Source: an uncultured Clostridiaceae bacterium (lineage in GTDB: Bacteria > Bacillota > Clostridia > DUPQ01). From it: 32,000 nt of DNA. The notes beneath the pieces were generated by a model. That model searched no databases, was not told where the DNA came from, and worked only from the letters and a program-made list of their open reading frames with translations. A program made the translations under genes and the position numbers. The stretch's first letter is position 1, and every line of letters starts with the position of its first letter. Below, one piece after another: positions 1 through 30,108 of the stretch. The stretch covers positions 88,008-120,007 of the forward strand of contig CAZLVL010000001.1 of NCBI GenBank assembly GCA_964563155.1, written 5' to 3'.

Positions 1-958
1 GTCCATAATCTGTATGGGGACCAATGTTTGCAGTTTGTTGCATATCATGACCATGACAAACACAACAAGGCCTATACTCTACATATCTTTCTTCTATTAG
101 GTCACAATAAATACATTTTCGACTTTGCAAATGACCTTCTGGTCCATGACTAGAAGAAACTTGAGACCAAGCAGAAAAGCTATGATTCCCTTTACATTTA
201 CAGCAGTTGTCTAGAGAAATATAGGAAGAAGAAGAATAGTCGCAAAAACTACAAGTAACTGTATAAAGATGACCTAAAGAGCTATGAAAATAATCTGTGT
301 AATATTCAAAATGATGCTCCCCCCTACAAGCACAACAATCTTCTTTTTCTGTATAGCCAGTTGCTCTTATTACACCGCACTTACTACAAAACTCTTGGTA
401 ATAGTGGCCTGCTCCATAAGAGTGGCTATCAAAAATATTCATTTCATATGTGTGATTACAGTTACACTTATCACAGTTTGGCTTTTTCAAATAGCCACTT
501 TCAATTATCTCATCACACTCTATACACTTAATAAAATAGTAGTGGCCTCTTGGCTCTTCATGGTCATTAGAAATTTGTCTTTGACCTGGGATATGACCAA
601 CACATAGACAACAGTCATCTTGGCTTTCGTAATAGGATGACGTGTAAGTACAAGTTGAGCACTTTAAGGTAACTAAATGACCTGAACTTGTATGGTTTCC
701 AATAGATGAAATATATATATTATGGTTGTTGGTACACTCACAACAGGTGCTTAAGGGCTTGTATCCTAATATGGTAATATACTCACAGTCATTACAAATA
801 TAGCCAAACTCATGACCCATACTTGTATGCTCTAAAGAGGCATAAGGAGAGTTCATGTGCCTTCCTGTATACTCAAAAGACTCACAAAAAGCATTAGCTT
901 TTAGACATAGGGTTAAAAGTAAAATTAGGGTTGTTAAAATAAGTATATTTCTTTTCAT
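1..958 (-). CDS. Secreted Cys/His-rich tandem-repeat protein, N-terminal 319 codons only (ORF continues past the left window edge)
   Basis: Absent from the ORF track because no stop lies in the window. Hand translation of the minus strand: ATG at 958-956, AGGAG (rc of 965-969) 6 nt upstream, and every codon open down to position 2. N-terminus MKRNILILTTLILLLTLCLKANA/F is a signal peptide with an AXA cleavage site. The rest is at least 6 repeats with a 44-46 aa period: CCxC-x2-3-H ... H-x3-4-GH ... CxxC. Confidence 0.75.
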   Translation of the reverse strand, partial: MKRNILILTTLILLLTLCLKANAFCESFEYTGRHMNSPYASLEHTSMGHEFGYICNDCEYITILGYKPLSTCCECTNNHNIYISSIGNHTSSGHLVTLKCSTCTYTSSYYESQDDCCLCVGHIPGQRQISNDHEEPRGHYYFIKCIECDEIIESGYLKKPNCDKCNCNHTYEMNIFDSHSYGAGHYYQEFCSKCGVIRATGYTEKEDCCACRGEHHFEYYTDYFHSSLGHLYTVTCSFCDYSSSSYISLDNCCKCKGNHSFSAWSQVSSSHGPEGHLQSRKCIYCDLIEERYVEYRPCCVCHGHDMQQTANIGPHTDYG

Positions 959-995
959 TAAAAACTCCTGCTTTTTGTTTGTTTGTCTTTTATGC

Positions 996-2183
996 TTACT
1001 TTAAAGAAAAGGTAAAGTTTCCAACTACATTTTGCATGGTGAAAAAGACATATCTCAAGGTTTGGTTTTGATTATCCTCTAAAAGATTATAGGCCTCTCT
1101 TGTGGGTAAAGCCCTTAGGTAGTCGTATCTATCCATAATGTATTCCACAATTTCTTGGGGTTGATGATCAGCTAAAACAGCACAAAGGGTATTTTTTACC
1201 TTAGCCTTATAAAAAGAAATGGGTATGCCATCTTCCCAGTCTAAAGACTTCATCTCTAACTTTAAAAACATGGTGTCATAGCCCCATTGTTTTTCTGGAT
1301 AAGCTGTAGGTCCATCAAAAAATCTCAAAGAGAACATGCAGTAGATGGGATTAAAGTATTGTCTAGACTTTTGATAGAAAATCTCATAGGTATCCTTTGT
1401 TTCAAAGACCTTCTTTTCAACAATTATATAGCCTACACTATCTTCCACTTCTGCTAAGGCTGTCAAAACTATTGGGGGAAGCTCTTCTTTTTTCACATTT
1501 TTAAATACCACATCAGGCTCTTTTTTAGGGTCTATAAAGGATAGGTCATAGTTAATTTTTTCTATTCTTTTATCTTTTCTATCCAATCTTTCAATTAAAC
1601 ATGCAGACTGGGCCCTTGTTAAGGTTTCATTGTATCTAAAGGTATAGTCTTCAAATCCTTCAATTAAGCCGGTATAAAAGGCTGTTTTAATGCTCTCAAG
1701 GTATAGATTAGGGGTGTAAGATCCTAGGTCAAAGGGTAAAATTTGATTCTTATTGTTTGGCTTTTCTCCTAAAAAATTTAAGGTATTGGCTAAAAGTAGA
1801 GATGCCTCTCCTCTGTTGATATAGAAGGTGTAATCGGTTTTATCGAAATCCTTTAAAATTCCTAGACTTTTAGCCCTATTTATATAGTTTTTTGCCCAAT
1901 AGTCCTTATCATTTTCTAGGTCTTCTTTTAAGACCTTTAAAATCATTTTAATAAACTCGTCAGCTCTTACCTTATTAGAAGGACGAAAACTATTATCTGT
2001 ATAACCATTTATTACATCTTTTCCACTTAGATAGACTACAGATTCATAAAACCAGTCTTTTTCATTCACATCAGTAAATATTTCATTTTTCGTTGAGGCC
2101 ATAGCTTGAAAAGGTATTCCTTGAAGAACAAGGCTAATAAATAGGACAATAAAAAACAACAGAAATCTTTTTGACTTTTTCAT
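996..2183 (-). CDS. SLH-domain cell-wall-anchored protein with an uncharacterised C-terminal domain
   Basis: 395 aa ORF with AGGAG RBS and a signal peptide (MKKSKRFLLFFIVLFISLVLQGIPFQAMA). One clear SLH repeat (FTDVNEKDWFYESVVYLSGKDVINGYTDNSFRPSNKVRADEFIKMILKVL) plus two degenerate ones (DYWAKNYINRAKSLGIL..., ...GLIEGFEDYTFRYNETLTRAQSACLIERL). Confidence 0.7.
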   Translation of the reverse strand: MKKSKRFLLFFIVLFISLVLQGIPFQAMASTKNEIFTDVNEKDWFYESVVYLSGKDVINGYTDNSFRPSNKVRADEFIKMILKVLKEDLENDKDYWAKNYINRAKSLGILKDFDKTDYTFYINRGEASLLLANTLNFLGEKPNNKNQILPFDLGSYTPNLYLESIKTAFYTGLIEGFEDYTFRYNETLTRAQSACLIERLDRKDKRIEKINYDLSFIDPKKEPDVVFKNVKKEELPPIVLTALAEVEDSVGYIIVEKKVFETKDTYEIFYQKSRQYFNPIYCMFSLRFFDGPTAYPEKQWGYDTMFLKLEMKSLDWEDGIPISFYKAKVKNTLCAVLADHQPQEIVEYIMDRYDYLRALPTREAYNLLEDNQNQTLRYVFFTMQNVVGNFTFSLK

Positions 2184-2249: not shown

Positions 2250-2828
2250 TTATTTGTTTTTTTCTTCTGTTGCTTTTTCTATCTTATTTTGACTTTCTTT
2301 TAAGACTATTTGTCTTAATTCTTTTAAATAGTCATGAACTTGAGCCTCTTCAACTCCATAGTCTAATTGTAGCTGATACTCTATGTCCAACCAGGTGGAT
2401 ATATCAGCTTCATTATGTTGTATTACAGCTTCCATTTTATCTAGGGCCTTAAATACCTTTGCTTCTAAGCTTTCCATCTTGTTCATTTCTTCATACAAAA
2501 GCCCTATGTTTTCTCTAACCTGTGCAGGAAGGTTTTTAGTAAAGTCACTAAAGGCTTCCTCTTCTAGTTTTTCATCTTTTTTTGTTTTTAAAAATGAAGG
2601 GATATCTCCCATTACAGCCTCTCCCAGATCATGGATAATGGCCATTTCAATTACCTTATCCATATCCACTTGGGGTAATTTTTCTTTTAGAATATAGGCC
2701 ATAAGAATAAGTCGGTAGCTATGTTCTGCCACTGATTCTTTTCTGCCACAAGTTGTAAAGGAATGTCTAAACTGACATTTCATTTTTTCTGCTATATGGA
2801 GCCATTGTAAAAAATCATATGCTTTCAT
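2250..2828 (-). CDS. HD-domain phosphohydrolase (YfbR-like 5'-deoxynucleotidase family)
   Basis: 192 aa with the H...HD...D metal motifs (ESVAEHSYRL, IIHDLGEAVMGDIP). Its start overlaps the upstream stop by 1 nt (TAATG). Confidence 0.8.
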   Translation of the reverse strand: MKAYDFLQWLHIAEKMKCQFRHSFTTCGRKESVAEHSYRLILMAYILKEKLPQVDMDKVIEMAIIHDLGEAVMGDIPSFLKTKKDEKLEEEAFSDFTKNLPAQVRENIGLLYEEMNKMESLEAKVFKALDKMEAVIQHNEADISTWLDIEYQLQLDYGVEEAQVHDYLKELRQIVLKESQNKIEKATEEKNK

Positions 2829-3616
2829 TATTTATCAAAGAGCCATTGGCTATCTATGGAAAGTTCTTCAACCTTTTCCAAGGTCATGATTTGTGAACCA
2901 CTTTCATATTTTACTAGGATTCTATCAGAGTCATTTGTATACCAAAGCAAGGATTCTTTTGCTCCAAAAAGAGAAAATCTTGCATACTTAGCACTATACT
3001 TTATGCAGTCATAGGTTTTGTCTCCTATTTGAACTTCTTCATCCTTTTGGTAAACCAAGGCATAGGGTGCAAATATGGCACTTTCATTTATTAAAACATT
3101 TATATCCACTTGTTCTTGTAAATCCAATTTTATAAGTCCAATTGTTAGGTTAACCATCTCATTGTCTAGATACCTTGCGGGAGTCTTTACCTTTTTTTCC
3201 ATGGTCTTTTCCCCTTGGACTGCTAGAATTTTAGCTTCTTGTTCAGTGTAGGTAGTATCTACCGACCAATCCTCTTCGGTGCCTGAATAAAAGATGTTTG
3301 ATTTATATGAAGATGAAGGTTTTAGGGTCTTTGTATCAAAAACTATTTGTGCTTTATAAATCCAGGTTTCAAAATCAGCCAGGGTTTGAAGTTTAGTTGT
3401 CCCATTGTTTTGTGTCATATACATAAAGGTTAGCTTGCCATCAATATTTTGGTCCATATTAACTATGCTATATGTGTACTTATATGAATCCTTTAGTTGG
3501 TATGCTAATTCAAATTCATCTTCGCTTAATTTAATATTGCAAGCACTAAAAGCTAATAGTATTGTTAGGACTAAAAGAATTAAAAGACTCTTTTTTATGT
3601 TTTTTCTTGTATTCAT
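2828..3616 (-). CDS. Putative lipoprotein of unknown function
   Basis: 262 aa. N-terminal basic/hydrophobic signal ends in the lipobox-like LAFSAC. The start is 1 nt after the upstream stop. I recognise no catalytic motif. Confidence 0.6.
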   Translation of the reverse strand: MNTRKNIKKSLLILLVLTILLAFSACNIKLSEDEFELAYQLKDSYKYTYSIVNMDQNIDGKLTFMYMTQNNGTTKLQTLADFETWIYKAQIVFDTKTLKPSSSYKSNIFYSGTEEDWSVDTTYTEQEAKILAVQGEKTMEKKVKTPARYLDNEMVNLTIGLIKLDLQEQVDINVLINESAIFAPYALVYQKDEEVQIGDKTYDCIKYSAKYARFSLFGAKESLLWYTNDSDRILVKYESGSQIMTLEKVEELSIDSQWLFDK

Positions 3617-3617
3617 C

Positions 3618-3884
3618 TTATCCCTTTCTTTTCATCTCTATTTCAAATCTATCAAAGTATACTTTTTCCATAAACTGTTCATCTGTGAAAAAAGTTTTTT
3701 GAAAGTTAGCCAACTCCCTAGTATTTTTGCTCATCCATATGGGAACCTGGATATCCATTTTTTTGCAAATATCTACTAAACAAGCTGTAAGTTTTTCTGA
3801 AAAGCTCATGTTTTCATCTTGATACTCAGCTTTTTCTTCCACTATTATCATATTGTTTTTAATAAGTTTTCCGTAAATTATCAT
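3618..3884 (-). CDS. Small hypothetical protein (88 aa)
   Basis: ORF with protein-like composition, tightly coupled to the lipoprotein gene. The SD is weak or distant and I recognise no family. Confidence 0.4.
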   Translation of the reverse strand: MIIYGKLIKNNMIIVEEKAEYQDENMSFSEKLTACLVDICKKMDIQVPIWMSKNTRELANFQKTFFTDEQFMEKVYFDRFEIEMKRKG

Positions 3885-6753: not shown

Positions 6754-8955
6754 TTGAAAGTATTACATTTAGCAGGTGGAGGAGATATTGGAGGGGCAAA
6801 AACCCATATTCTTTCTTTGGTTAAAGAAATATCCAAGGTCAATCAAGTAAAGCTTGTTTCTTTTAGATATGGAGACTTTGCAGAATCTGCTAAAAATATT
6901 GGTATCGATGTTTTTGAAACATCCAGTAAACTCATATTCAAGGATGTTAAAGAGTTATTTAAGGTCTACGACGAGTTTAAGCCAGACATTGTTCACTGCC
7001 ATGGAGCAAAGGCAAACTTCATGGGCCTTATGTTGAAAAAGTATAAAAAGGCTTGTGTAACCAGCACCATACACAGCGATTATAGAAAAGACTATATACA
7101 CAATATCTTCAAGCTGGTTTCCATTGGAATATTTAACACCTTTGCTCTTAGAATAATTAACTACCACATAGCTGTAACAGAAGAATTTGCAAGAACCTTA
7201 ATATCTAGGGGCTTTAATCCCCATAATATGTTTTCCATATATAACTGTATTGATTTTGATAAAAAACTAGATATAATCCCAAAGGAAGACTACTTCAAAC
7301 AATACCATATCCCCTATAATCCAGAGGAAGTTATTATAGGTATTGCTGCTAGACTGACCAAGGTAAAAGATATTTCTACTCTTATTAAGGGTTTTGCCAA
7401 GTCCTATGAAGAGAATAAAAACATTAGACTTTTAATTGCTGGAGATGGCGAAGAGAAAAATATGTTATCCTCTTTAGCTAAAAAATTAGGGGTTAGCGAT
7501 AGGGTCCATTTTTTAGGTTGGATTAGCAATATTGATGCCTTTTTTTCTGTCATAGATATAGATGTTATTTCTTCTTTAAGCGAAACCTTCCCCTATTCAT
7601 TAACTGAGGGAATTAGAGCTGGTGCCATACCCATTTCCAGCTTGGTTGGAGGAGCCCCTTCTCTTATTGACCATAAGGTTACTGGATATATTTTTGAGCC
7701 AAGAGACTACAAGGCTTTGGGAAAATATATTTCTGAGCTGGCATCAGACAAGGAAAAAAGAGAGACTATGCAAAAGGAGATCTACAAAAGGACCAAGAAG
7801 AATTTTTCTCTAGATGCTATGAGAAATCTCCAACTGTCAATTTATGATCTCATCTTAAAGCGCTTTAGGTCTGACAAGAGAAATATGGTTGTAATATGTG
7901 GAGCATATGGAAGAGGAAATGCAGGAGATGAGGCTATTAAGCATGCTACCCTAAGCGGTATTAGAAGCATAGACTCTGATATGGAGCTATGTGTTATGAC
8001 CTTAAGGCCAAGAAAAGAAAGAGCTATTGATAGAGTAAACACCATATTTACCTTTAATATTTTTAAGCTTTATTTTATTCTCAAGAGAACAAAACTATTT
8101 GTAAGTGGTGGAGGTTCTTTAATACAGGATATAACCTCAACCCGTTCCCTTCTTTTTTATATCTACACCCTTTATATGGCTAAAAAAGCTAATTGTAAGG
8201 TTATAATGTTTGGTTGTGGGATAGGTCCTTTAACTAGACCAATAAACAGAAAACTAGCAGGTAGAGTTATTGATAACTATGTGGATGTTATAACGGTTAG
8301 AGACCATCTTTCAAAAAAAGAACTGGATTCTTTAGGAGTAATAAAACCTAAAATCTTTGTAACAGCAGACCCTGCTATCAACCTAGTAGCAAAGCTAGAG
8401 GATAGGCATAAAATATTTATTGAAGAAAATATTCCTATGGAAGGAAAATATATTTGTCTTGCTCTAAGAAATTGGAAAAAATTTAATAGGCATAAAGAAA
8501 TTGCAGATGCTTGTAAAAAGCTTTATGAAAAATATGATTTAATACCTATCTTTTTTCCCATGGAATATCCTAAGGATTTAAGTGCATCACAAAAGGTCAT
8601 AGACCTTTTGGACATTCCCTACTTTGTCATTGAAAATCGCTATCCCATAGAACAGGCCATTGGCTTCATATCACAAATGGATATGGTACTAGCCATGAGA
8701 CTTCATGCCTTAATCTTTGCTGCAGCTAACTATGTTCCTGTTATTGGTGTTTCATATGATGTAAAGGTTTCTGGCTTTATGGAATATATAGAAAATGAGT
8801 CCTGCATTGAGTTAGACAATGTGGAAGTTCAAACAATTGTAGATGCTGCAACCAAAAGTTTTGAGTTGAAAAACAAGGTTATTGAGGCTACAAACATTTT
8901 GAAAGAAAAAGAAGAGATAAATAAAATACAAATGAAAAAACTTATTGAACCATAA
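6754..8955 (+). CDS. csaB: Fusion protein: GT4 glycosyltransferase (N-terminal) plus CsaB polysaccharide pyruvyl transferase (C-terminal)
   Basis: 733 aa from TTG with a GAGG SD. The N-terminal half has the GT4 signature (MKVLHLAGGGDIGGAKTH..., SETFPYSLTEG E-x7-E). From residue ~378 (nt ~7885) come CsaB hallmarks: VVICGAYGRGNAGDEAI, SGGGSLIQDITSTRSLLFY, MRLHALIFA. No stop separates the halves. Confidence 0.85.
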   Translation: MKVLHLAGGGDIGGAKTHILSLVKEISKVNQVKLVSFRYGDFAESAKNIGIDVFETSSKLIFKDVKELFKVYDEFKPDIVHCHGAKANFMGLMLKKYKKACVTSTIHSDYRKDYIHNIFKLVSIGIFNTFALRIINYHIAVTEEFARTLISRGFNPHNMFSIYNCIDFDKKLDIIPKEDYFKQYHIPYNPEEVIIGIAARLTKVKDISTLIKGFAKSYEENKNIRLLIAGDGEEKNMLSSLAKKLGVSDRVHFLGWISNIDAFFSVIDIDVISSLSETFPYSLTEGIRAGAIPISSLVGGAPSLIDHKVTGYIFEPRDYKALGKYISELASDKEKRETMQKEIYKRTKKNFSLDAMRNLQLSIYDLILKRFRSDKRNMVVICGAYGRGNAGDEAIKHATLSGIRSIDSDMELCVMTLRPRKERAIDRVNTIFTFNIFKLYFILKRTKLFVSGGGSLIQDITSTRSLLFYIYTLYMAKKANCKVIMFGCGIGPLTRPINRKLAGRVIDNYVDVITVRDHLSKKELDSLGVIKPKIFVTADPAINLVAKLEDRHKIFIEENIPMEGKYICLALRNWKKFNRHKEIADACKKLYEKYDLIPIFFPMEYPKDLSASQKVIDLLDIPYFVIENRYPIEQAIGFISQMDMVLAMRLHALIFAAANYVPVIGVSYDVKVSGFMEYIENESCIELDNVEVQTIVDAATKSFELKNKVIEATNILKEKEEINKIQMKKLIEP

Positions 8956-9008: not shown

Positions 9009-10100
9009 TTGTCCAGCAAGATAAGAACACAAGATAAGAAGAAAGAAATTGATATACCAGTCATACTACCTTCTTTAAACCCTACAGAAAAACTAGTTGA
9101 AACAGTGGATAACCTTATACTTTTAGGCTTTAAAGATATTATAGTCATAAACGATGGAAGCAGCCCTTCATATAATCCTATCTTTCAAAGAATAGAAAAT
9201 TATCCCCAATGTACCCTTTTGCAACATGAGATTAACAAAGGAAAAGGTTGTGCTTTAAAAACAGCCTTTAGCTTTATACAAGAGCATAGAGAGGTTTTAG
9301 GCTTTGTAACAGCTGATGCAGATGGTCAACATTTAGCTGAAGATATCTTAAAATGTGCCCTAGCCCTAAAAGATGATAAGACCTATATCTTAGGTGCTAG
9401 AGATTTTTCAAAACCCCAGGTCCCACCTCGTAGTGTCTTTGGCAATAGATTAACCTCTCTAGTGTTTAAGATAAGTTGCAAAATGGACATAAATGACACT
9501 CAAACTGGCTTAAGAGCCTTTCCTGCCAAGTACATTCCTTTACTTTTAACCATAAAAGGAGAGCGTTTTGAATATGAGACAAACATGCTTTTAGAGTTAC
9601 AAAACAGAAACATCCCCTTTAAAGAGGTTAGTATAGAAACAGTCTATGAAGACAATAACAAGGGCTCTCACTTTCACTCTTTTAGAGATGCCTTTAGAAT
9701 TTACAAGAATATCTTCAAATTCATGGGAGGTTCAATTTTAGCCTTTGTACTTGATAACCTGATATTTTTAAGTCTCTTTTACCTGCTTTTTAAAATTAAC
9801 GAAGATGTCAGAATACTAATAAGTATAGTTATTGCTAGGCTTATGTCATCTTTTTTCAACTTTACCTTTAATAAAAAAAGAGTGTTTGAACACAGTCAAA
9901 ACTCTAAGATTGCCCTTGTTAGATATTATTCTCTTTCCTTAATGCTCTTAGTTATATCCTGGTTTATTCTTTCTCTTACAGACAACCTTTTTACCCAAAC
10001 CACACCTATCCTTCTTCTCTTAATAAAGATTGGAACAGAGAGTCTACTTTTTATCTTGTCCTTTTATTTGCAAAAAAGATGGGTTTTTCAAAGTAAATAA
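9009..10100 (+). CDS. GT2 glycosyltransferase fused to a C-terminal GtrA-like membrane domain
   Basis: 363 aa from TTG with a GGGGG SD. GT2 motifs are present (PVILPSLNP, VINDGS, ADADGQH, TQTGLRAF). The C-terminal ~130 aa has four hydrophobic helices with the GtrA-like FNFTFNKKRVF. Confidence 0.8.
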   Translation: MSSKIRTQDKKKEIDIPVILPSLNPTEKLVETVDNLILLGFKDIIVINDGSSPSYNPIFQRIENYPQCTLLQHEINKGKGCALKTAFSFIQEHREVLGFVTADADGQHLAEDILKCALALKDDKTYILGARDFSKPQVPPRSVFGNRLTSLVFKISCKMDINDTQTGLRAFPAKYIPLLLTIKGERFEYETNMLLELQNRNIPFKEVSIETVYEDNNKGSHFHSFRDAFRIYKNIFKFMGGSILAFVLDNLIFLSLFYLLFKINEDVRILISIVIARLMSSFFNFTFNKKRVFEHSQNSKIALVRYYSLSLMLLVISWFILSLTDNLFTQTTPILLLLIKIGTESLLFILSFYLQKRWVFQSK

Positions 10101-12219: not shown

Positions 12220-13467
12220 ATGAATGTCTTGTTAAAAATTGCAATTGTCATGGTGGTAGGCATTATAGGGGGCAAACTGGCAAAAATGCTTAAACTACCC
12301 AATGTATCCGGTTATTTAGTAGCCGGGCTATTTTTGGGTCCTTCTTTCTTTAACTTTGTCAGTAGTCAGGATTTAAATTCTTTTTCAATAATTAATGAAA
12401 TGGCTTTAGCAGCCATTGCCTTTAGTATAGGTAATGAATTCATTTGGAAAGAGATTAAAAAGATTGGAAAGTCCATATTTGTAATAACCCTTATGGAGGT
12501 TATTGGGGCAGTGCTAGTGGTCTTTTCTATTATGTTCTTTCTTTTTAAGCAACCCTTTTCCTTTTCAATTATCATAGCTTCCATGTCAGCAGCTACAGCA
12601 CCTGCTGCCACTTTATTAGTTATGAGACAATATAATGCAAAAGGCCCCTTGACCAGTGCCATACTTCCAGTAGTAGCTCTAGATGATGTTTTTGGCATAG
12701 CAATTTTTGGAATTGCCCTTTCTTTAGCTAGAATGACTGATAGTACGGAATCTTTTTCTATTCCTGCTATGATTTTTCAACCTCTGTTAGAAATTGGTGG
12801 ATCTGTTTTATTAGGTTTTGTTTTAGGAATAATATTAGTCTTTGTTACCGGAAAGATATTAAAAAGCAAGGACGAGATACAAGCAGTATCTTTAGCAGCT
12901 GTAGGCTTAAGCGCCGGCTTGTCCATTTTGCTCCACATCTCTCCTCTTCTTACTAGTATTGTTATGGGAACAGTATTAGTAAACTTTAAGCAAAAACCTG
13001 GCAAGATTTTCGAGTCTGTAAACACCTTTGCCACACCCTTGTACTTACTCTTTTTTACCCTAGCGGGAGCAAGTTTAGACCTTTCTATACTAAAGACTGT
13101 TGGTCTTATGGGTATAGCCTATGTCATAGCTAGAGGTGGTGGAAAGATGCTTGGTGCTTGGGCTGGAGCTGAAATGGTTAATGAAGTTCCAGTTATTAAG
13201 AAATATTTAGGCTTAGCCCTTTTACCCCAAGGAGGAATATCCATTGGTTTATTGGTATTGGTAAGACAATACTTGCCTGCCCACAGCGCTGCCATAAATG
13301 CCATTATTATGTTCAGCGTACTGATATATGAAGTGAGTGGACCTATTTTTGCAAAAATTGCTATAAGCAAAGCTGGAGAAATAAATATACCAGAAAAGCA
13401 AAAAAAAGATTTTCCATTTTTTAAAAGCAAAAAGGAAAAAACTATTTCACAATCAGTGAAAAAATAA
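12220..13467 (+). CDS. Cation:proton antiporter (CPA2/Na_H_Exchanger family), membrane domain only
   Basis: 415 aa with about 12 hydrophobic helices and a typical N-terminus (IAIVMVVGIIGGKLAKMLKLPNVSGYLVAGLFLGPS). No soluble RCK/KTN domain is attached. Confidence 0.85.
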   Translation: MNVLLKIAIVMVVGIIGGKLAKMLKLPNVSGYLVAGLFLGPSFFNFVSSQDLNSFSIINEMALAAIAFSIGNEFIWKEIKKIGKSIFVITLMEVIGAVLVVFSIMFFLFKQPFSFSIIIASMSAATAPAATLLVMRQYNAKGPLTSAILPVVALDDVFGIAIFGIALSLARMTDSTESFSIPAMIFQPLLEIGGSVLLGFVLGIILVFVTGKILKSKDEIQAVSLAAVGLSAGLSILLHISPLLTSIVMGTVLVNFKQKPGKIFESVNTFATPLYLLFFTLAGASLDLSILKTVGLMGIAYVIARGGGKMLGAWAGAEMVNEVPVIKKYLGLALLPQGGISIGLLVLVRQYLPAHSAAINAIIMFSVLIYEVSGPIFAKIAISKAGEINIPEKQKKDFPFFKSKKEKTISQSVKK

Positions 13468-17902: not shown

Positions 17903-18175
17903 ACCAAAGAAAAACCGCTGATTAAGAAGAGTAGGCGAAGAGATTTATTGTACAGGGAGTTGCAGATACTGAGATTGCAGCAAAGAAGGCTTCACTGAAT
18001 GGACTTATGAGGGCAGGACGAAAGGAAACGAGTAGCGCCTGACGGGATCTCCACCCGTTATAAAGGGAGCATATATGAGTGTATATGGAATGAGTGGGCA
18101 TTTTTGCCAATCAGGGTGGTACCGCAGGAGTATAATCTCTTGTCCCTAGTTTTAGGGATGAGGGATTTTTTTTAT
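17903..18175 (+). promoter_or_regulatory. T-box leader, tryptophan specifier (UGG)
   Basis: Stem I has AGUA, an AG bulge (AGGGAG), a distal UGAGA, and the specifier loop GAA-UGG-A (UGG at 18000-18002). The T-box sequence AAUCAGGGUGGUACCGCAGG is at 18109-18128. The terminator CTCTTGTCCCTA-gttt-TAGGGATGAGGG plus a T run is at 18137-18174. Confidence 0.85.
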
Positions 18176-18213: not shown

Positions 18214-19197
18214 ATGAAAAAAACAAAGAAAATTTTGGTGCTCACCTTGGCAATTTTATTAATTATTAGCCTTGCATCTTGCACCACAAAAGAAAAGGTA
18301 ATAACAATAGGTGTTATTCAGTATGCTCCCCATGGGTCTTTAGACAACTGTTATGATGGTTTTATATTAGGCTTAGAAGAAGCTGGCTTTGTTGACAAGG
18401 ACAATATCAAGATTGACTTTCAAAATGCCATGGGAGAAATGGATAATAGTGATTTATTGGCCTCTACTATGGTAGCCTCCAACTATGACATGCTGGTGGG
18501 TATTGCAACACCTGCAGCCATGAGTGCTTATGCAGCCAGTAAAAACACCTCTATTCCTGTAGTCTTTTCTGCAGTATCAGATGCTGTAGCAGCAGGAATA
18601 GTAAAATCTAACGAAATACCTGGATACAATGTAACCGGGACATCGGATGTATTACCTCTAGAAGAGCAAATGCAAATGATAAGAGATTTTTTACCAAAGG
18701 CTGAAAAGATAGGAATTATTTACACCACCAGTGAGCCAAACTCTGTTACTCATCTTAATATTTTTAAAGAGCTAGCTAAGGTGTATGGTTTTACTATTGT
18801 AGAAGCAGGTGTTACCAACGCATCAGAGGTATCTATTACTGCAGCTTCCTTGGTTGCAAAAGGAGTGGATTGCATTAATAACTTTACAGATAACAATGTG
18901 GTCAATAACTTATCTTCAGTAATTCATGAAGCAAACAAGGCCAATATACCGGTCTTTGGCTCTGAAATTGAGCAGGTGAAAATAGGGTGTCTTGCATCTA
19001 TGAGCATTGATTATGTAGCCTTGGGAGTGGAAACTGGTAAGATTGCAGCTCGGATTTTAAATGGAGAAGCAGCCTCTGAGATTCCTGTTTCTCTCATTTC
19101 CACCAGTGAACCTGTATACAACTCAGAGGTTGCCAACAGATTAGGTATAGCCATTCCTGACCAATATGTGACTGGTGATAATGATATGGCTAATTAG
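18214..19197 (+). CDS. ABC importer substrate-binding lipoprotein (COG2984 / ABC_sub_bind family; TrpX-like)
   Basis: 327 aa with signal peptide and lipobox LASC. It has the family-typical ITIGVIQYAPHGSLD start. First gene after the Trp T-box. Confidence 0.8.
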   Translation: MKKTKKILVLTLAILLIISLASCTTKEKVITIGVIQYAPHGSLDNCYDGFILGLEEAGFVDKDNIKIDFQNAMGEMDNSDLLASTMVASNYDMLVGIATPAAMSAYAASKNTSIPVVFSAVSDAVAAGIVKSNEIPGYNVTGTSDVLPLEEQMQMIRDFLPKAEKIGIIYTTSEPNSVTHLNIFKELAKVYGFTIVEAGVTNASEVSITAASLVAKGVDCINNFTDNNVVNNLSSVIHEANKANIPVFGSEIEQVKIGCLASMSIDYVALGVETGKIAARILNGEAASEIPVSLISTSEPVYNSEVANRLGIAIPDQYVTGDNDMAN

Positions 19198-19214
19198 GAA
19201 GAAGGGATAAAACA

Positions 19215-20126
19215 ATGATTATTATCAACCTTTTACAAAACATCCTACAAGAGGGCTTTATCTATGGGATTATGGCTATGGGAGTTTACATTAGCTACAA
19301 GGTTATGGACTTTCCCGATTTGTCGGTTGATGGAACCTTTCCTCTTGGAATGTGCTTAACAGCAGCCCTCATAAATGCAGGGGTTAATCCCCTGCTAGCT
19401 TCCTTTCTAGCATTTTTAGCTGGCCTTATAGCTGGGTCTGTTACAGGTCTTATTCATGTAAAGCTAAAAATTACAGATCTACTTTCTGGTATCTTAGTTA
19501 TGACAGCTATGTGGTCTGTAAATTTAGTTATTACAAGAGGGTCTGCTGTTTTACCTTTTTACAACAAACCTACTTTTTTTAAAGGAAAATTCATAGACCT
19601 ACTACCTAGCTTTCTGAATAATTACTCCTCTTTAGTGATAACTTTTCTTTTTATGATGCTAGTAAAAATACTAATTGATTTGTATCTAAAAACAAAATCT
19701 GGTCTTTTGCTAAGGGCAGCTGGAGACAACTCTCAATTTGTAACCTCTTTATCAAAAGACCCTGGTCTAGCTAAGATAAGGGGTCTTGCCATAGGAAATG
19801 GCTGTACTGCCCTGGCTGGCTCTATTTTGGCTCAATACAATGAGTCAGCTAATGTTTCAGCAGGAACTGGAATGGTAGTTATGGCTTTAGCTAGTGTAAT
19901 CATTGGAGAGAGCATCTTTAGAAAAGTTACTTTTCTAAAAGGAACTACAACAGCTCTTTTTGGAGCAATTATATATAGGTTGTGTCTCTTACTTGCTATG
20001 CAATTAGGCTTACCTACCAACTATTTGAAGCTCTTAATGGCATTAATATTTGTAATTGCCTTAGTGTCTAACAACTATTTTTCAAGAGGGAGGAAAAAAC
20101 AATATGTCCAACCAGAAAGACTTTAA
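19215..20126 (+). CDS. ABC importer permease (COG4120; TrpY-like)
   Basis: 303 aa polytopic membrane protein, placed between the binding protein and the ATPase. Confidence 0.8.
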   Translation: MIIINLLQNILQEGFIYGIMAMGVYISYKVMDFPDLSVDGTFPLGMCLTAALINAGVNPLLASFLAFLAGLIAGSVTGLIHVKLKITDLLSGILVMTAMWSVNLVITRGSAVLPFYNKPTFFKGKFIDLLPSFLNNYSSLVITFLFMMLVKILIDLYLKTKSGLLLRAAGDNSQFVTSLSKDPGLAKIRGLAIGNGCTALAGSILAQYNESANVSAGTGMVVMALASVIIGESIFRKVTFLKGTTTALFGAIIYRLCLLLAMQLGLPTNYLKLLMALIFVIALVSNNYFSRGRKKQYVQPERL

Positions 20127-20919
20127 AGAGAAAAATCCTGTAAATATAGTTGAGTTGAAGGATATTAAAAAGACCTTTAACAAGGGCTATGTTAATCAAG
20201 TAGAGCTATTTAATAATTTTAACTTAACAATACAAAAAGGCTCCTTTACAACAGTTGTGGGAAGCAATGGCTCAGGTAAAACCAGTCTATTGAACATAAT
20301 CTGTGGAAATATATCTATTGACCAGGGATACATTTTTTTAAACGGTGAAGATATTAACCACTACAAGGAGTATCAAAGAGCTAAAAAGATTGGTAGGGTT
20401 TTTCAAGATCCCTCTCTAGGAACTTGTCCCCAATTGACTATTTTAGAAAATCTATCCCTTGCCTATAACAAGAACAAAGCTTTTTCATTGAGTCCAGCTA
20501 TTAGTAAAAGAAATATTGAATTTTTTGGCTCTCAATTAAAACTATTAGAAATGGGTCTAGAAAACAAGATGACCCAAAAGGTAGCTACCTTGTCTGGAGG
20601 CCAAAGGCAAGCCCTTGCCCTTTTAATTTCCACCTTAACTCCCATTGACCTTTTAATCTTAGATGAACATACAGCAGCCCTTGACCCTAAATCTTCTGAA
20701 ACAATAATGGCCTTAACAGATTCTTTTATTAAAAGCAAAAAGATAACCACCTTAATGGTTACTCATAACCTTAGGTATGCTGTAGATTACGGAGATAGAA
20801 TTATAATGATGCACCAAGGAGATATGGTGGTAGATGCAAAAGAAAGAGAAAAAGAAAACTACCAGATAGAAGACCTTTTAAAGATTTTCAATTCCATATC
20901 CATAGAATGTGGTAATTAA
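20104..20919 (+). CDS. ABC importer ATP-binding protein (COG1101; TrpZ-like)
   Basis: 271 aa with Walker A GSNGSGKT, signature LSGGQRQ, Walker B LLILDEHT and H-loop VTHN. GGGAGG SD. It overlaps the permease gene by 23 nt. Confidence 0.85.
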   Translation: MSNQKDFKEKNPVNIVELKDIKKTFNKGYVNQVELFNNFNLTIQKGSFTTVVGSNGSGKTSLLNIICGNISIDQGYIFLNGEDINHYKEYQRAKKIGRVFQDPSLGTCPQLTILENLSLAYNKNKAFSLSPAISKRNIEFFGSQLKLLEMGLENKMTQKVATLSGGQRQALALLISTLTPIDLLILDEHTAALDPKSSETIMALTDSFIKSKKITTLMVTHNLRYAVDYGDRIIMMHQGDMVVDAKEREKENYQIEDLLKIFNSISIECGN

Positions 20920-27577: not shown

Positions 27578-29083
27578 ATGGCTGATGCATTAAAATCAAA
27601 CTTATCAAAAATCAAGGAATATTGGGATAGTTTAGAGAGTAAACGAAAAAATAGCTTAGTATTAATTGGTCTCATCTTTTTAATAGGACTGGTCTTTTTA
27701 GTAGTTCTTGTTACAAGACCTACCTACACAACCCTCTACACAAATTTGGATGTATATGAAGCTGGAGAAATTTACTCAAAATTAACCGAAATGGGAGCAG
27801 ATATAAAGCTTAAAAATGATACTACCCTTCTAATAAATGAAAAACAAGCTGATTCATACCGAATGCTTATGGCAAAAGAAGGTTATCCCAAAAGTGGTTT
27901 TAATTATGACCTTTATACTGACAACATTGGTATGGGAGTATCAGAAAATGAAAAGCAAACCTTCTATATCTTCCAAGTCCAAGAAAGGTTACAAAACACA
28001 ATTAAAACCCTAAAGGGAGTAAAAAATGCCATTGTAACCATAAGTAAACCTGAAGAGACCATTTTTGTTTTAGCCAGCCAGCAAAAACCAATAACAGCAG
28101 CCATAGTAATAGACCTTGAAACATCCAGCCTTTCAGCAGCTAATGTAAAAGCAATAGAGCATTTAGTAGAAAAAAGCATGTCTGGCCTTTTAAAGGAAAA
28201 CATTACCATCATAGATTCACAGATGAACATTCTAAACAGACGGACCGATACAAATATTGGAGTAGCTTCTGAAAAATATGAATTACAAAGAGGTCTTGAA
28301 ATGGAGATAGAAGAAAAAATCCTTTCCATGATAGAACCAATTTATGGCATTGGCAATGTAAAAACCGCTGCTAATGTTAAGGTTAATTTTGATTCCATAA
28401 GCGAAGAAAGGGTTGAGTTTAATCCTGTTAATGATGACCAAGGTATCCCCTACTCTGTAACCGAAAGAAGTGAATCCATTAAAGAGGCTAGTCCAGCTAC
28501 TTTGGATGAAAACAATAACCTCTTTTTAGAAAATGATGCTGCTTCACAAGAAAGGTCTGTTTTGTATTATGTTAATCAAAGTACCAAGGTTTTAGCTTAT
28601 GAACAAGGGATTGTTGAAGACATTAAGTTATCAATAATAATAAACAGTGTGGCAATTGCAGATGAAGTACTAGAAAACATCAGAGTAATGGCAGCAAATG
28701 CCATAGGTTCAAAAGAAAGCAATGTTGTGGTTCAAGCTCTTGAGTTTACAGAAAAAATGAATATGGAAAGCAACCTAAAAGATGCTGAGAAAACCCAACC
28801 TAAAATGTCTTTAATATACGATAAGGACTTTGTTCTAAAAGTCGCTACCCTCTTTTCAGTTTTTCTCTTAGGTCTTTTAGCAATTTTAGTCTTTAGAAAA
28901 AGTATCCTTACCTTAAAACCAAAATTTGAGAAAAAACCTGAAATTATTGATACAGCCTTCTTAGAAGAGCTAGGTTCCAAAAAAGATCCTGAAGAACAAT
29001 ATAGGGATGAGATTGATAAATATGTGGAAAAGAACCCACAAGGAGTAGCTGACATACTAAAGAAATGGATGCATGAGGAGTAA
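27578..29083 (+). CDS. fliF: Flagellar M-ring protein FliF
   Basis: 501 aa. An N-terminal TM helix is followed by YTTLYTNLD..EAGEIYSKLTEMG, then a second TM helix near the C-terminus. Operon position fits. Confidence 0.9.
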   Translation: MADALKSNLSKIKEYWDSLESKRKNSLVLIGLIFLIGLVFLVVLVTRPTYTTLYTNLDVYEAGEIYSKLTEMGADIKLKNDTTLLINEKQADSYRMLMAKEGYPKSGFNYDLYTDNIGMGVSENEKQTFYIFQVQERLQNTIKTLKGVKNAIVTISKPEETIFVLASQQKPITAAIVIDLETSSLSAANVKAIEHLVEKSMSGLLKENITIIDSQMNILNRRTDTNIGVASEKYELQRGLEMEIEEKILSMIEPIYGIGNVKTAANVKVNFDSISEERVEFNPVNDDQGIPYSVTERSESIKEASPATLDENNNLFLENDAASQERSVLYYVNQSTKVLAYEQGIVEDIKLSIIINSVAIADEVLENIRVMAANAIGSKESNVVVQALEFTEKMNMESNLKDAEKTQPKMSLIYDKDFVLKVATLFSVFLLGLLAILVFRKSILTLKPKFEKKPEIIDTAFLEELGSKKDPEEQYRDEIDKYVEKNPQGVADILKKWMHEE

Positions 29084-29085
29084 CC

Positions 29086-30108
29086 ATGGAAAACCTTAAG
29101 ATGTCAAATTTAAATATTTCTGGAAAACAAAAGGCTGCATACCTTCTAATAATGTTAGGAAAAAGCCAGGCTTCAAAGCTTATGAGATTTTTTAATGAAG
29201 AAGAAATCAAAACAATAACCTTTGAAATAGTAAATCACAACACCATTGATAAACCAGATAGAATGGTCATTTTGCAAGACTTCTATAACAGCTGCCTAGC
29301 TAAAACCTATATTGACAAAGGGGGCATAGATTATGCCAAAGAAATCCTTTATGAAACCATGGGACCTCAAAAAGCATTAGAGCTCATAAATGACATGATG
29401 GATTTAGAAAAATCAAAACCCTTTGATTTTATGAAAGATATTGATCCTATAGAAGTTTTTAACTATCTACAATTTGAAAATGATCAAACCATAGCCTTTA
29501 TACTTTCATATTTAAAAAACAATCAAGCAGCTGCTGTTTTATCCATGTTACCCAGAGAAAGACAAGCCAATGTCTCAGTTAAAATTGCCTTAATGGATAA
29601 AATTTCCCCAGACATTATTAAAGAAATTGAAAGTGTTATGGGAGAAAAATTTACCAGACCTGGTGCTCAAGCCTATACAAAAACTGAAGGTATTGAAATC
29701 TTAGTAAATATTCTCAACTCGGTTGATAGAAGTACAGAAAAACAAATCTTTGAAATGCTAGAAGAGGAAAATGACAATTTAGCTGGAGAAGTCAAAAAGA
29801 GAATGTTTGTATTTGAAGATATCATCAACCTGGGTGATAAGGAAATTCAAAGATTCTTAGTGGAAGTAGATACAAAGGATTTAGCAATTTCCTTAAAAAC
29901 AGCTACTGAAGAACTAAAAGATTTAATACTAAAGAATCTTTCCAAGAGAGCTCGTCAAATTGTTGTAGAAGAAATGAATCTTTTGGGTCCTGTTAGATTA
30001 AGTGAGATTGAAAAATCTCAACAAGAACTGGTTAGTGTTATAAGGGCATTAGATGAAAAGGGAGACATTCTAATCAGAAAAACCGGCGATGACAAGATCA
30101 TAGATTAA
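29086..30108 (+). CDS. fliG: Flagellar motor switch protein FliG
   Basis: 340 aa with GKQKAAYLLIMLG, MFVFEDI and LSKRARQIVVEEM. Confidence 0.9.
   Translation: MENLKMSNLNISGKQKAAYLLIMLGKSQASKLMRFFNEEEIKTITFEIVNHNTIDKPDRMVILQDFYNSCLAKTYIDKGGIDYAKEILYETMGPQKALELINDMMDLEKSKPFDFMKDIDPIEVFNYLQFENDQTIAFILSYLKNNQAAAVLSMLPRERQANVSVKIALMDKISPDIIKEIESVMGEKFTRPGAQAYTKTEGIEILVNILNSVDRSTEKQIFEMLEEENDNLAGEVKKRMFVFEDIINLGDKEIQRFLVEVDTKDLAISLKTATEELKDLILKNLSKRARQIVVEEMNLLGPVRLSEIEKSQQELVSVIRALDEKGDILIRKTGDDKIID

Follow-up and report, generated by a model that had tools for sequence, protein, structure and literature searches.

Why should an exported bacterial protein carry, one after another, small modules that each hold eight candidate metal ligands? 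The question is raised by a gene at the left edge of the window analysed here, a stretch of 32,000 nt from an uncultured Clostridiaceae bacterium (contig CAZLVL010000001.1, positions 88,008 to 120,007). This gene, referred to below as the target gene, encodes a protein with a tandem Cys/His array and lies next to a gene for a protein with SLH (S-layer homology) domains. We conclude that the repeat is a new, unannotated family of predicted extracellular, double-site Cys/His domains with a confidently predicted fold. In the reading that we favour, and to which we give about an even chance, metal ions, probably Zn, staple the array into a rigid rod or spacer, which belongs to a surface complex of two proteins anchored to the wall. 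We rank polymer binding, metal scavenging and an oxidant fuse below it.

The target gene and its product

The target reading frame is cut solely by the window edge; a further 1,453 nt past the left edge complete it to 803 codons. The features of the gene are as follows.

1..958, minus strand: 5′ part of the target gene, the first 319 of 803 codons, starting at ATG 958, in an uninterrupted frame
965..969, minus strand: Shine-Dalgarno sequence AGGAG, 6 nt 5′ of ATG 958, read directly
890..958, minus strand: Sec-type signal peptide, residues 1-23, MKRNILILTTLILLLTLCLKANA before F; assigned from sequence features, with no predictor run
L001:11226-13637: full target gene (L001 is ena:ERZ27247346:k141_992755, of ENA assembly ERZ27247346, 107 kb)

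The uninterrupted minus-strand frame of 319 codons described by the first-pass annotation, with its AGGAG and ATG 958, was seen again and was completed to 803 codons on the source contig. A protein from other samples (P0001) is 98% identical to the target protein across all 803 residues. At the N-terminus, a hydrophobic core and an A-x-A site (A-N-A, then F) are kept in the orthologues, which bears out the proposal of a signal peptide ending ANA/F. We rejected a lipoprotein reading of the LTLC within this signal peptide, as that Cys is missing in the orthologue P0003. By these features the gene is real and its product a predicted exported protein.

The 803 residues comprise the signal peptide, seven Cys/His modules, an Athe_2463-type domain and two predicted β-sandwiches. 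The array (residues 24-346) contains 35 Cys and 23 His (10.8% and 7.1%), and residues 347-803 (457 residues) contain 4 Cys and 5 His (0.9% and 1.1%).

An array of Cys/His modules with invariant ligands

The modules follow one another along the minus strand, from position 886 to the window edge and beyond.

734..886, minus strand: module 1 (residues 25-75), in which a lone Cys25 replaces CCxC, followed by H34, H44, GH49 and C55xxC58, and closed by C72/C75
602..742, minus strand: module 2 (residues 73-119), with C73, H79, H89, GH94, C100xxC103 and C116/C119
464..610, minus strand: module 3 (residues 117-165), with C117, H122, H133, GH139 and C145xxC148, closed by C162xxC165
326..460, minus strand: module 4 (residues 167-211), a variant with an extra Cys after the knuckle (CDKC-N-C167-N-H169), kept in P0001-P0005
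194..334, minus strand: module 5 (residues 209-255)
56..202, minus strand: module 6 (residues 253-301), with a 2-residue insertion in strand 1
1..64, minus strand: start of module 7 (residues 299-319 of 299-345), completed outside the window and closed by C342-P-L-C345

A recount of the 319 residues encoded in the window gives the same 32 Cys and 22 His as the first-pass annotation, and all of its positions for the starts of the CC(x)C blocks (residues 72, 116, 162, 208, 252 and 298) and for the CxxC pairs (55, 100, 145, 191, 236 and 282) match ours. Its GH pairs at 48, 93, 138, 184, 229 and 275 also match, and additional GH pairs are found at 121 and 303. The spacing formula that it gave for the module fits, except that the distance from CxxC to the following CC block is 12-13 residues, not 10-13.

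The autocorrelation of Cys and His along the protein has its maximum at a lag of 45-46 residues, with 19 matches versus 12.9±1.4 in shuffled sequences. The best of 2,000 shuffles also reached 19 matches, so the autocorrelation is weak when taken alone. The decisive evidence against chance periodicity comes from comparison: the ligand pattern is invariant among orthologues of 34-57% identity. Across these orthologues the array can be written as [single Cys]-H-H-GH-CxxC-{CCxC-H-H-GH-CxxC}n-CxLC. The 5 Cys and 3 His of each module are invariant in ~50 modules from eight orthologues, so the tandem modules with eight candidate ligands, as first proposed, hold for the family. A Gly before the third His is also conserved in each module, and a Tyr in the last strand is nearly invariant. 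In addition, CxxC-x12-13-C(C)xC is present in every module, so that each has two knuckles within the sequence spacing of classical Cys4 zinc ribbons (~12-25 residues).

The modules of the window protein are 33% identical to one another, and ~18% identical when the ligand columns are left out. Invariant ligands amid such low identity are the sequence signature of a metal-held mini-domain, and the ligands probably bind metal, most likely Zn. Modules at the same position in different orthologues share 44-71% identity, and every module has a positional orthologue in the eight-module proteins. Because the modules are only 33% identical and each has such a counterpart, the array is, on this comparison, old and stable rather than recently expanded. 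Two variants, CxxC-N-C-x-H in module 4 and CCC-G-x-H in the P0006/L002 clade, are not sequencing errors, since each is conserved within its clade.

The repeat has no counterpart in family databases

Scans with Pfam and NCBIfam found nothing for the repeat. PDB sequence searches with the protein and with the module profile gave non-significant matches only (E 0.1-1); these were all Cys4 zinc ribbons (uS14 type Z, RPB9/TFIIS and RPA12), aligned on CxxC-x12-CxxC. The claim that the repeat belongs to no named family thus stands. Pfam DUF7695 has no match in the window protein; P0002 reaches 24.3 bits against a cut-off of 25, over one CxxC...CxxC stretch. A word-indexed homology search with the 319-residue fragment found no match; the homologues came with the full-length sequence. 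A first survey of the literature on extracellular zinc-ribbon or Cys-rich repeats in Clostridia yielded no account of the module.

With the array profile, a HMMER search of 1.84 billion representative proteins returned just 16 at E≤0.001. The non-orthologous hits are large Firmicute proteins, several of them with N-terminal leaders resembling signal peptides. Their modules often have H-P-H instead of H-x4-GH, and are fused to FN3, RicinB, Big_2, M23 peptidase, papain-like and endonuclease I domains; in these distant proteins, too, no Pfam model covers the modules.

Two proteins, P0013 (971 residues) and P0020 (1413 residues), match the module profile weakly. They contain a different repeat of 60-70 residues, HEHTF...HWH..TC.H...H.Y..W...G.....C..CG. 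P0013 begins with a leader and ends in a hydrophobic segment, and P0020 includes repeats of the leucine-rich type. Their weak matches hint at a far larger superfamily of extracellular Cys/His repeats, as yet unannotated, in Firmicutes.

Predicted fold and partition of the ligands

We predicted the structure with AF2, using 37 register-shifted two-module segments as the alignment. For window residues 70-168 (modules 2-3) the mean pLDDT (predicted local distance difference test score) was 92.3. The full-length model was poor (pLDDT 56), with the same module pattern as the two-module model. Each predicted module is a three-stranded antiparallel β-sheet (strands 12-21, 24-31 and 37-42) with a helical turn at CCxC. 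In its long hairpin, strand 1 is preceded directly by the first His and ends with the second, and strand 2 opens with GH. The CxxC knuckle sits at the turn between strands 2 and 3, and strand 3 runs into the next CCxC, which places the two knuckles at opposite ends of strand 3 with a single extended strand between them.

In this topology the first and second His are ~10 strand residues apart. Because two His split by a 10-residue strand cannot share a metal, the partition is predicted to be interleaved. The model implies that ligand pairs 1+3 gather at one end and pairs 2+4 at the opposite end of the sheet, in cross-brace order, and that adjacent modules share one CCxC knuckle. In the base site (Cys3His), which would resemble a zinc ribbon, the CxxC knuckle would then be joined by the first His and by the middle Cys of CCxC. 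The tip site would be formed by the His pair H...GH, flanking the turn between strands 1 and 2, together with Cys1 and Cys4 of the next CCxC (Cys2His2). One CCxC knuckle would thus serve the tip of module n and the base of module n+1.

We rejected the other partition, a Cys4 ribbon (CxxC and C1xxC4) plus a Cys-His3 site, as AF2 puts the first and second His, and likewise the knuckles, at opposite ends. The ends of the array fit interleaving: it begins in every orthologue with one Cys, and it closes with CxLC, which lacks the middle Cys. Taken alone, this comparative logic does not discriminate between the two partitions. The distant relatives P0009, P0012, P0021 and P0022 split CCxC into CxxC-(PP/YPP/NAP)-[C/H]-x-H, and P0022 has Pro-rich linkers between complete modules, which fits the interleaved scheme.

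A Foldseek search of the PDB with the two-module model found no neighbour (best E 0.2). Against BFVD it gave sub-significant matches only, to an ‘SLH domain' fragment and a leucine-rich repeat protein (TMq 0.51 and 0.43); these are probably further carriers of related module arrays.

Two known folds invite comparison. With the zinc ribbons of TFIIS/RPB9/RPA12 and of uS14 type Z, the module shares a three-stranded antiparallel sheet, an N-terminal ligand pair and a CxxC at the turn between strands 2 and 3. It differs from them in a second site predicted at the far end of its sheet, its His ligands, its extracellular location and its knuckle-sharing tandem arrays, and it has no significant similarity to them (PDB E 0.1-1, no Pfam zinc-ribbon match). 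With the RING, PHD and FYVE cross-braces it would share eight ligands in four pairs, combined 1+3 and 2+4 according to the predicted topology. However, its predicted fold is all-β, an elongated sheet of ~30 Å with sites at opposite ends rather than a compact α/β globule, and the protein is bacterial, exported and without Pfam similarity to those domains. Of the first-pass idea of a binuclear, cross-brace-like module, the interleaved order therefore fits the predicted topology; the predicted fold is an elongated β-sheet and no RING-type globule.

The array varies on a constant core

Orthologues (34-57% identity) come from metagenome-assembled genomes of Clostridia and from sludge and wastewater metagenomes. 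They contain 0, 3, 7 or 8 modules, while the C-terminal domain and the SLH partner stay constant. The repeat-less orthologues (for example P0007 and P0031) are ~505-515 residues long. P0023 (623 residues) has three modules, and its closing C-x-L-C is replaced by R-Q-L-H, so that its last tip site lacks one ligand and has His instead of the other Cys.

The partner gene lies directly upstream of the target gene.

996..2183, minus strand: SLH partner gene, encoding a 395-residue exported protein with SLH domains and a ~190-residue C-terminal domain of unknown type

Its stop codon at 996-998 gives the same 37-nt gap as noted earlier. An SLH homologue is found directly upstream on the same strand in 19 of the 19 loci for which upstream DNA is available, including those of the repeat-less orthologues. 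In the window, no terminator-like site was found between the two genes. At other loci the pair is closer still: 3 nt separate the genes in L004 and L007, and in L002 they share 4 nt. The adjacency and the spacing support the proposed co-transcription. In the Pfam scan, SLH domains were present in the upstream partner and absent from the target protein. Because the array is absent or variable while the other two parts stay, the conserved functional core is, judged by conservation, the SLH protein together with the C-terminal domain, and the Cys/His array is an optional N-terminal accessory.

Within the C-terminal part, residues 378-507 match NCBIfam NF047340 (Athe_2463 domain). P0001 scores 19.3 bits (E 0.0013), below the cut-off of 36, which is passed by the orthologues P0031 (46.4 bits) and P0007 (41.6 bits); at E≤0.01 the match is present in 7 of 7 family members. 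In the full-length AF2 model the remaining C-terminal region forms two β-sandwiches of moderate confidence, whose Foldseek neighbours are generic Ig-like domains. Profile searches with the C-terminal domain found no match among PDB sequences.

Athe_2463 is a protein of the Caldicellulosiruptor bescii secretome, of unknown function, that is ~16-fold more abundant on xylan or xylose, and its operon also codes for a predicted lipoprotein, likewise of unknown function (PMC5865380). The target resembles Athe_2463 proteins in its C-terminal domain and in sharing an operon with a further uncharacterised protein that is anchored in the envelope. The likeness is limited to the C-terminal part, and the partner of Athe_2463 is a lipoprotein, whereas that of the target is an SLH protein.

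At the extreme C-terminus (L001:13590-13634), the motif (I/M)TGN(I/T)Y(D/E)xL(Y/H)(V/P)QP is kept in every homologue. It is also found in the distant P0036 (575 residues), which shares only the last β-sandwich. The motif could serve in sorting or docking.

A proposed metal-stapled rod

The metal-stapled rod would arise as follows. After Sec export and cleavage, residues 24-346 would form seven mini-domains of ~45 residues with no linkers between them. Each would be a three-stranded sheet with almost no hydrophobic core, held together by its two tetrahedral sites, most likely of Zn(II). Because the CCxC knuckle is shared, the array would be a continuous stiff rod with ~14 metal ions, ~20-25 nm long if the modules are collinear. 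The C-terminal part (the Athe_2463-type domain and the two β-sandwiches) and the co-translated SLH protein would make up a wall-anchored complex, in which the C-terminal part presumably contacts the SLH partner. The rod would act as a spacer or projecting arm of the C-terminal part and would not be catalytic. We infer, within this reading, metal binding and the identity of the metal, the sharing of ligands, rigidity, length, the SLH contact and the role as spacer.

The spacer or stalk role is suggested because the copy number varies and because the module is reused in unrelated secreted proteins. Variable copy number on a constant C-terminal domain is a trait of stalk repeats, and it is found here. 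Like the stalk repeats (Big_2, FN3, SHIRT, Rib and others) of fibrillar adhesins and periscope proteins, the modules are extracellular repeats of variable copy number attached to a non-repetitive functional region (PMC9210967). Those repeats, however, are Ig-like folds of 70-100 residues with hydrophobic cores and no metal clusters, whereas the target has its anchor on another protein, the SLH partner, and its repeats are old (33% identity) rather than recent copies of high identity. The anaerobic life of the hosts would make metal-held sheets without a core viable outside the cell, and extracytoplasmic Zn sites containing thiols are known in anaerobic Firmicutes, as in penicillin-binding protein (PBP) 2 of C. 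difficile (PMC9334274).

Several points weigh against the metal-stapled rod. The rod is N-terminal and the part shared with the repeat-less orthologues is C-terminal, so the rod may project freely rather than form a stalk under a head. The pTM (predicted template modelling score) of the two-module AF2 model is 0.59, which leaves the orientation of the modules towards each other, and with it the shape and length of the rod, uncertain. The partition of the ligands is a prediction from modelled secondary structure. Free Zn is scarce in sulfidic anaerobic habitats. Finally, modules at the same position are conserved to the same degree as the C-terminal domain (44-71%), which allows a specific binding role.

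Other explanations of the array

Such a binding role is the first alternative. The flat, Tyr/Ser/Thr-rich faces of the sheets might bind a polysaccharide or a protein with avidity, in the manner of small carbohydrate-binding modules (CBMs). The 319 window-encoded residues include 27 Tyr, 33 Ser and 21 Thr, one Tyr of strand 3 is nearly invariant, and conservation between orthologues is high for modules of the same position. RicinB lectin domains accompany distant module arrays, and the Athe_2463-type domain is linked to growth on xylan or xylose in C. bescii. Yet, beyond the ligands, the Gly and the one Tyr, no surface position is conserved across the modules; the number of modules falls to 0 with the operon unchanged; and there is no similarity to any Pfam CBM family. 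We consider this explanation unlikely.

It is also possible that the ~14 sites capture, store or detoxify metal (Zn, Ni, Co, Cu or Cd) at the cell surface, and perhaps pass it to an importer in the way of the streptococcal Pht proteins. The contrast in ligand density between the array and the C-terminal part (given above) and a surface location through the SLH partner would suit this role, and Pht, a Gram-positive surface protein with several tandem Zn-binding units, provides a precedent by handing Zn to AdcAII (PMC3842936). Pht proteins use His-only HxxHxH sites, with one Zn per unit of ~100 residues, and their genes are linked to adcAII. The target, however, has neither homology to Pht nor a Pfam Pht match. 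HxxHxH occurs zero times in the target protein and in seven orthologues, and we rejected an identification as Pht on this ground. In the window and in L004, L006 and L007, no Zn-uptake or metal-efflux gene lies beside the pair; more broadly, inspection of the neighbouring genes found no metal-uptake, redox or radical-SAM genes linked to it. Four-ligand, Cys-rich sites that hold a fold are usually non-exchangeable, and the repeat-less orthologues retain the same operon. Metal capture is in our view somewhat less likely again than polymer binding.

The array may, alternatively, be a redox-sensitive element, in which 35 thiolates act as an oxidant ‘fuse': oxidation would free the metal and collapse the rod. 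The host is a Clostridia bacterium of anaerobic type, NrdD and its activase adjoin an orthologous locus, and a role as redox sensor has been proposed for the thiol-Zn site of the extracytoplasmic PBPs of anaerobes (PMC9334274). Against this, the argument is purely inferential, the neighbouring genes include no conserved redox-related ones, and sensitivity to oxidation may be a side-effect rather than a function. We regard a fuse as improbable, and give the same low standing to its more specific form, in which an oxygen-labile zinc-thiolate rod on the surface of strict anaerobes, kept together by nothing but ~14 metal ions and 35 thiolates, loses its metal to oxidants and, by collapsing, switches the SLH-anchored complex and hence the activity or exposure of the Athe_2463-type head.

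Two further explanations would dispense with structural zinc. In the first, the repeat would be cystine-stabilised, its Cys being cross-linked covalently by disulfides or in other ways. Extracellular Cys-rich repeats are indeed disulfide-bonded in many organisms, but here the Cys numbers are odd (five per module, 35 per array), the three invariant His per module would have no role, the knuckles have the CxxC spacing usual in metal sites, and the hosts are Clostridia from sludge and wastewater; such a scaffold is very improbable. In the second, a chain of rubredoxin-like Fe sites would conduct electrons through the Gram-positive wall, an idea prompted by the export, the regular spacing of the Cys-rich sites and the resemblance of the CxxCG knuckles to rubredoxin, but one that has next to no chance of being right, as the predicted 10-residue strands put the sites of one module ~30 Å apart, well beyond the ~14 Å limit for physiological electron tunnelling, and as there is no rubredoxin or cytochrome Pfam match, no adjacent respiratory gene, and no conservation of the sole CxxCH (residue 298). 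This single CxxCH is absent in P0005, P0006, P0008 and P0023, and we rejected a multihaem cytochrome. Rubredoxin, DnaJ-CR and metallothionein identities were likewise rejected, as neither their motifs nor Pfam matches were found.

Genomic surroundings

The neighbours of the target gene are SLH, HD, DUF3108, DUF218, DHDPS and formyltransferase genes, with no metal-uptake gene among them. The following features were noted in the window and at other loci.

6754-8955, plus strand: GT4/GT1 and polysaccharide pyruvyl transferase (PF04230) fusion of 733 residues, 6 kb from the pair
9009-10100: GT2+GtrA gene, adjoining the pyruvyl transferase fusion
2828-3884, minus strand, and L004:3093-4071: small open reading frame (ORF; 77-88 residues) and DUF3108 pair, upstream of the SLH cassette
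L003:1120-2049, L004:4266-5156 and L007:3531-4418, all minus strand: Metallophos phosphoesterase, upstream of the SLH gene and on the opposite strand, at three divergent loci
2250-2828: HD-domain 5′-deoxynucleotidase-like gene, which in the window occupies the place of Metallophos
L007:4599-6595: sigma-70 region-2 (extracytoplasmic function (ECF)-like) gene and a 449-residue unannotated gene, directly before the SLH gene, in the 2.45-Mb genome carrying P0031
12004-12135, plus strand: cyclic di-AMP (c-di-AMP) riboswitch (RF00379, 66 bits), directly upstream of an ORF of the Na+/H+ exchanger family (12220-13467, plus strand)
17909-18150, plus strand: T-box leader (RF00230, 99.5 bits), upstream of the ORFs of an ABC uptake operon (18214-20919, plus strand)
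27578-30108, plus strand: flagellar genes fliF and fliG

The pyruvyl transferase fusion is presumably of the enzyme type (CsaB-type) whose product is the pyruvylated wall polymer to which SLH domains bind. It is compatible with anchoring of the complex by SLH domains to a pyruvylated wall polymer, and fits the predicted wall location. The small ORF and DUF3108 pair may be linked to the cassette, or may reflect plain synteny. In L007 two same-strand genes lie between the Metallophos and SLH genes, and the ECF-like gene and the 449-residue gene of that locus may be a dedicated regulator pair. The T-box operon encodes a PF04392 substrate-binding protein, a BPD_transp_2 permease and a third ORF product. 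The flagellar genes mark the host as a motile member of the Clostridia.

Significance

Small metal-stapled domains, among them zinc fingers and zinc ribbons, are seen as devices of the cell interior, and bacterial surface stalks as Ig-like folds. The locus described here shows a conserved, exported, linker-less array of proposed double-metal mini-domains that has no counterpart in Pfam, NCBIfam or the PDB. Its relatives are dispersed among multidomain secreted proteins from Firmicutes that are anaerobes. If the fuse explanation were true, the array would be a redox sensor intrinsic to the protein and wholly extracellular, made of an undescribed double-metal β-ribbon repeat.

If the metal sites are confirmed, the module would be a new type of structural repeat, viable outside the cell only under reducing conditions, and a natural building block of 45 residues, predicted with high confidence, for metal-dependent protein rods. 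It would also be a new extracellular domain family with which to annotate blank stretches of large secreted Firmicute proteins, among them the distant relatives described above. Confirmation would, in addition, flag a conserved two-gene cassette, made up of an SLH anchor and an Athe_2463-type secreted partner; within a cellulolytic secretome, the protein that founded the partner's domain family is under strong substrate regulation.

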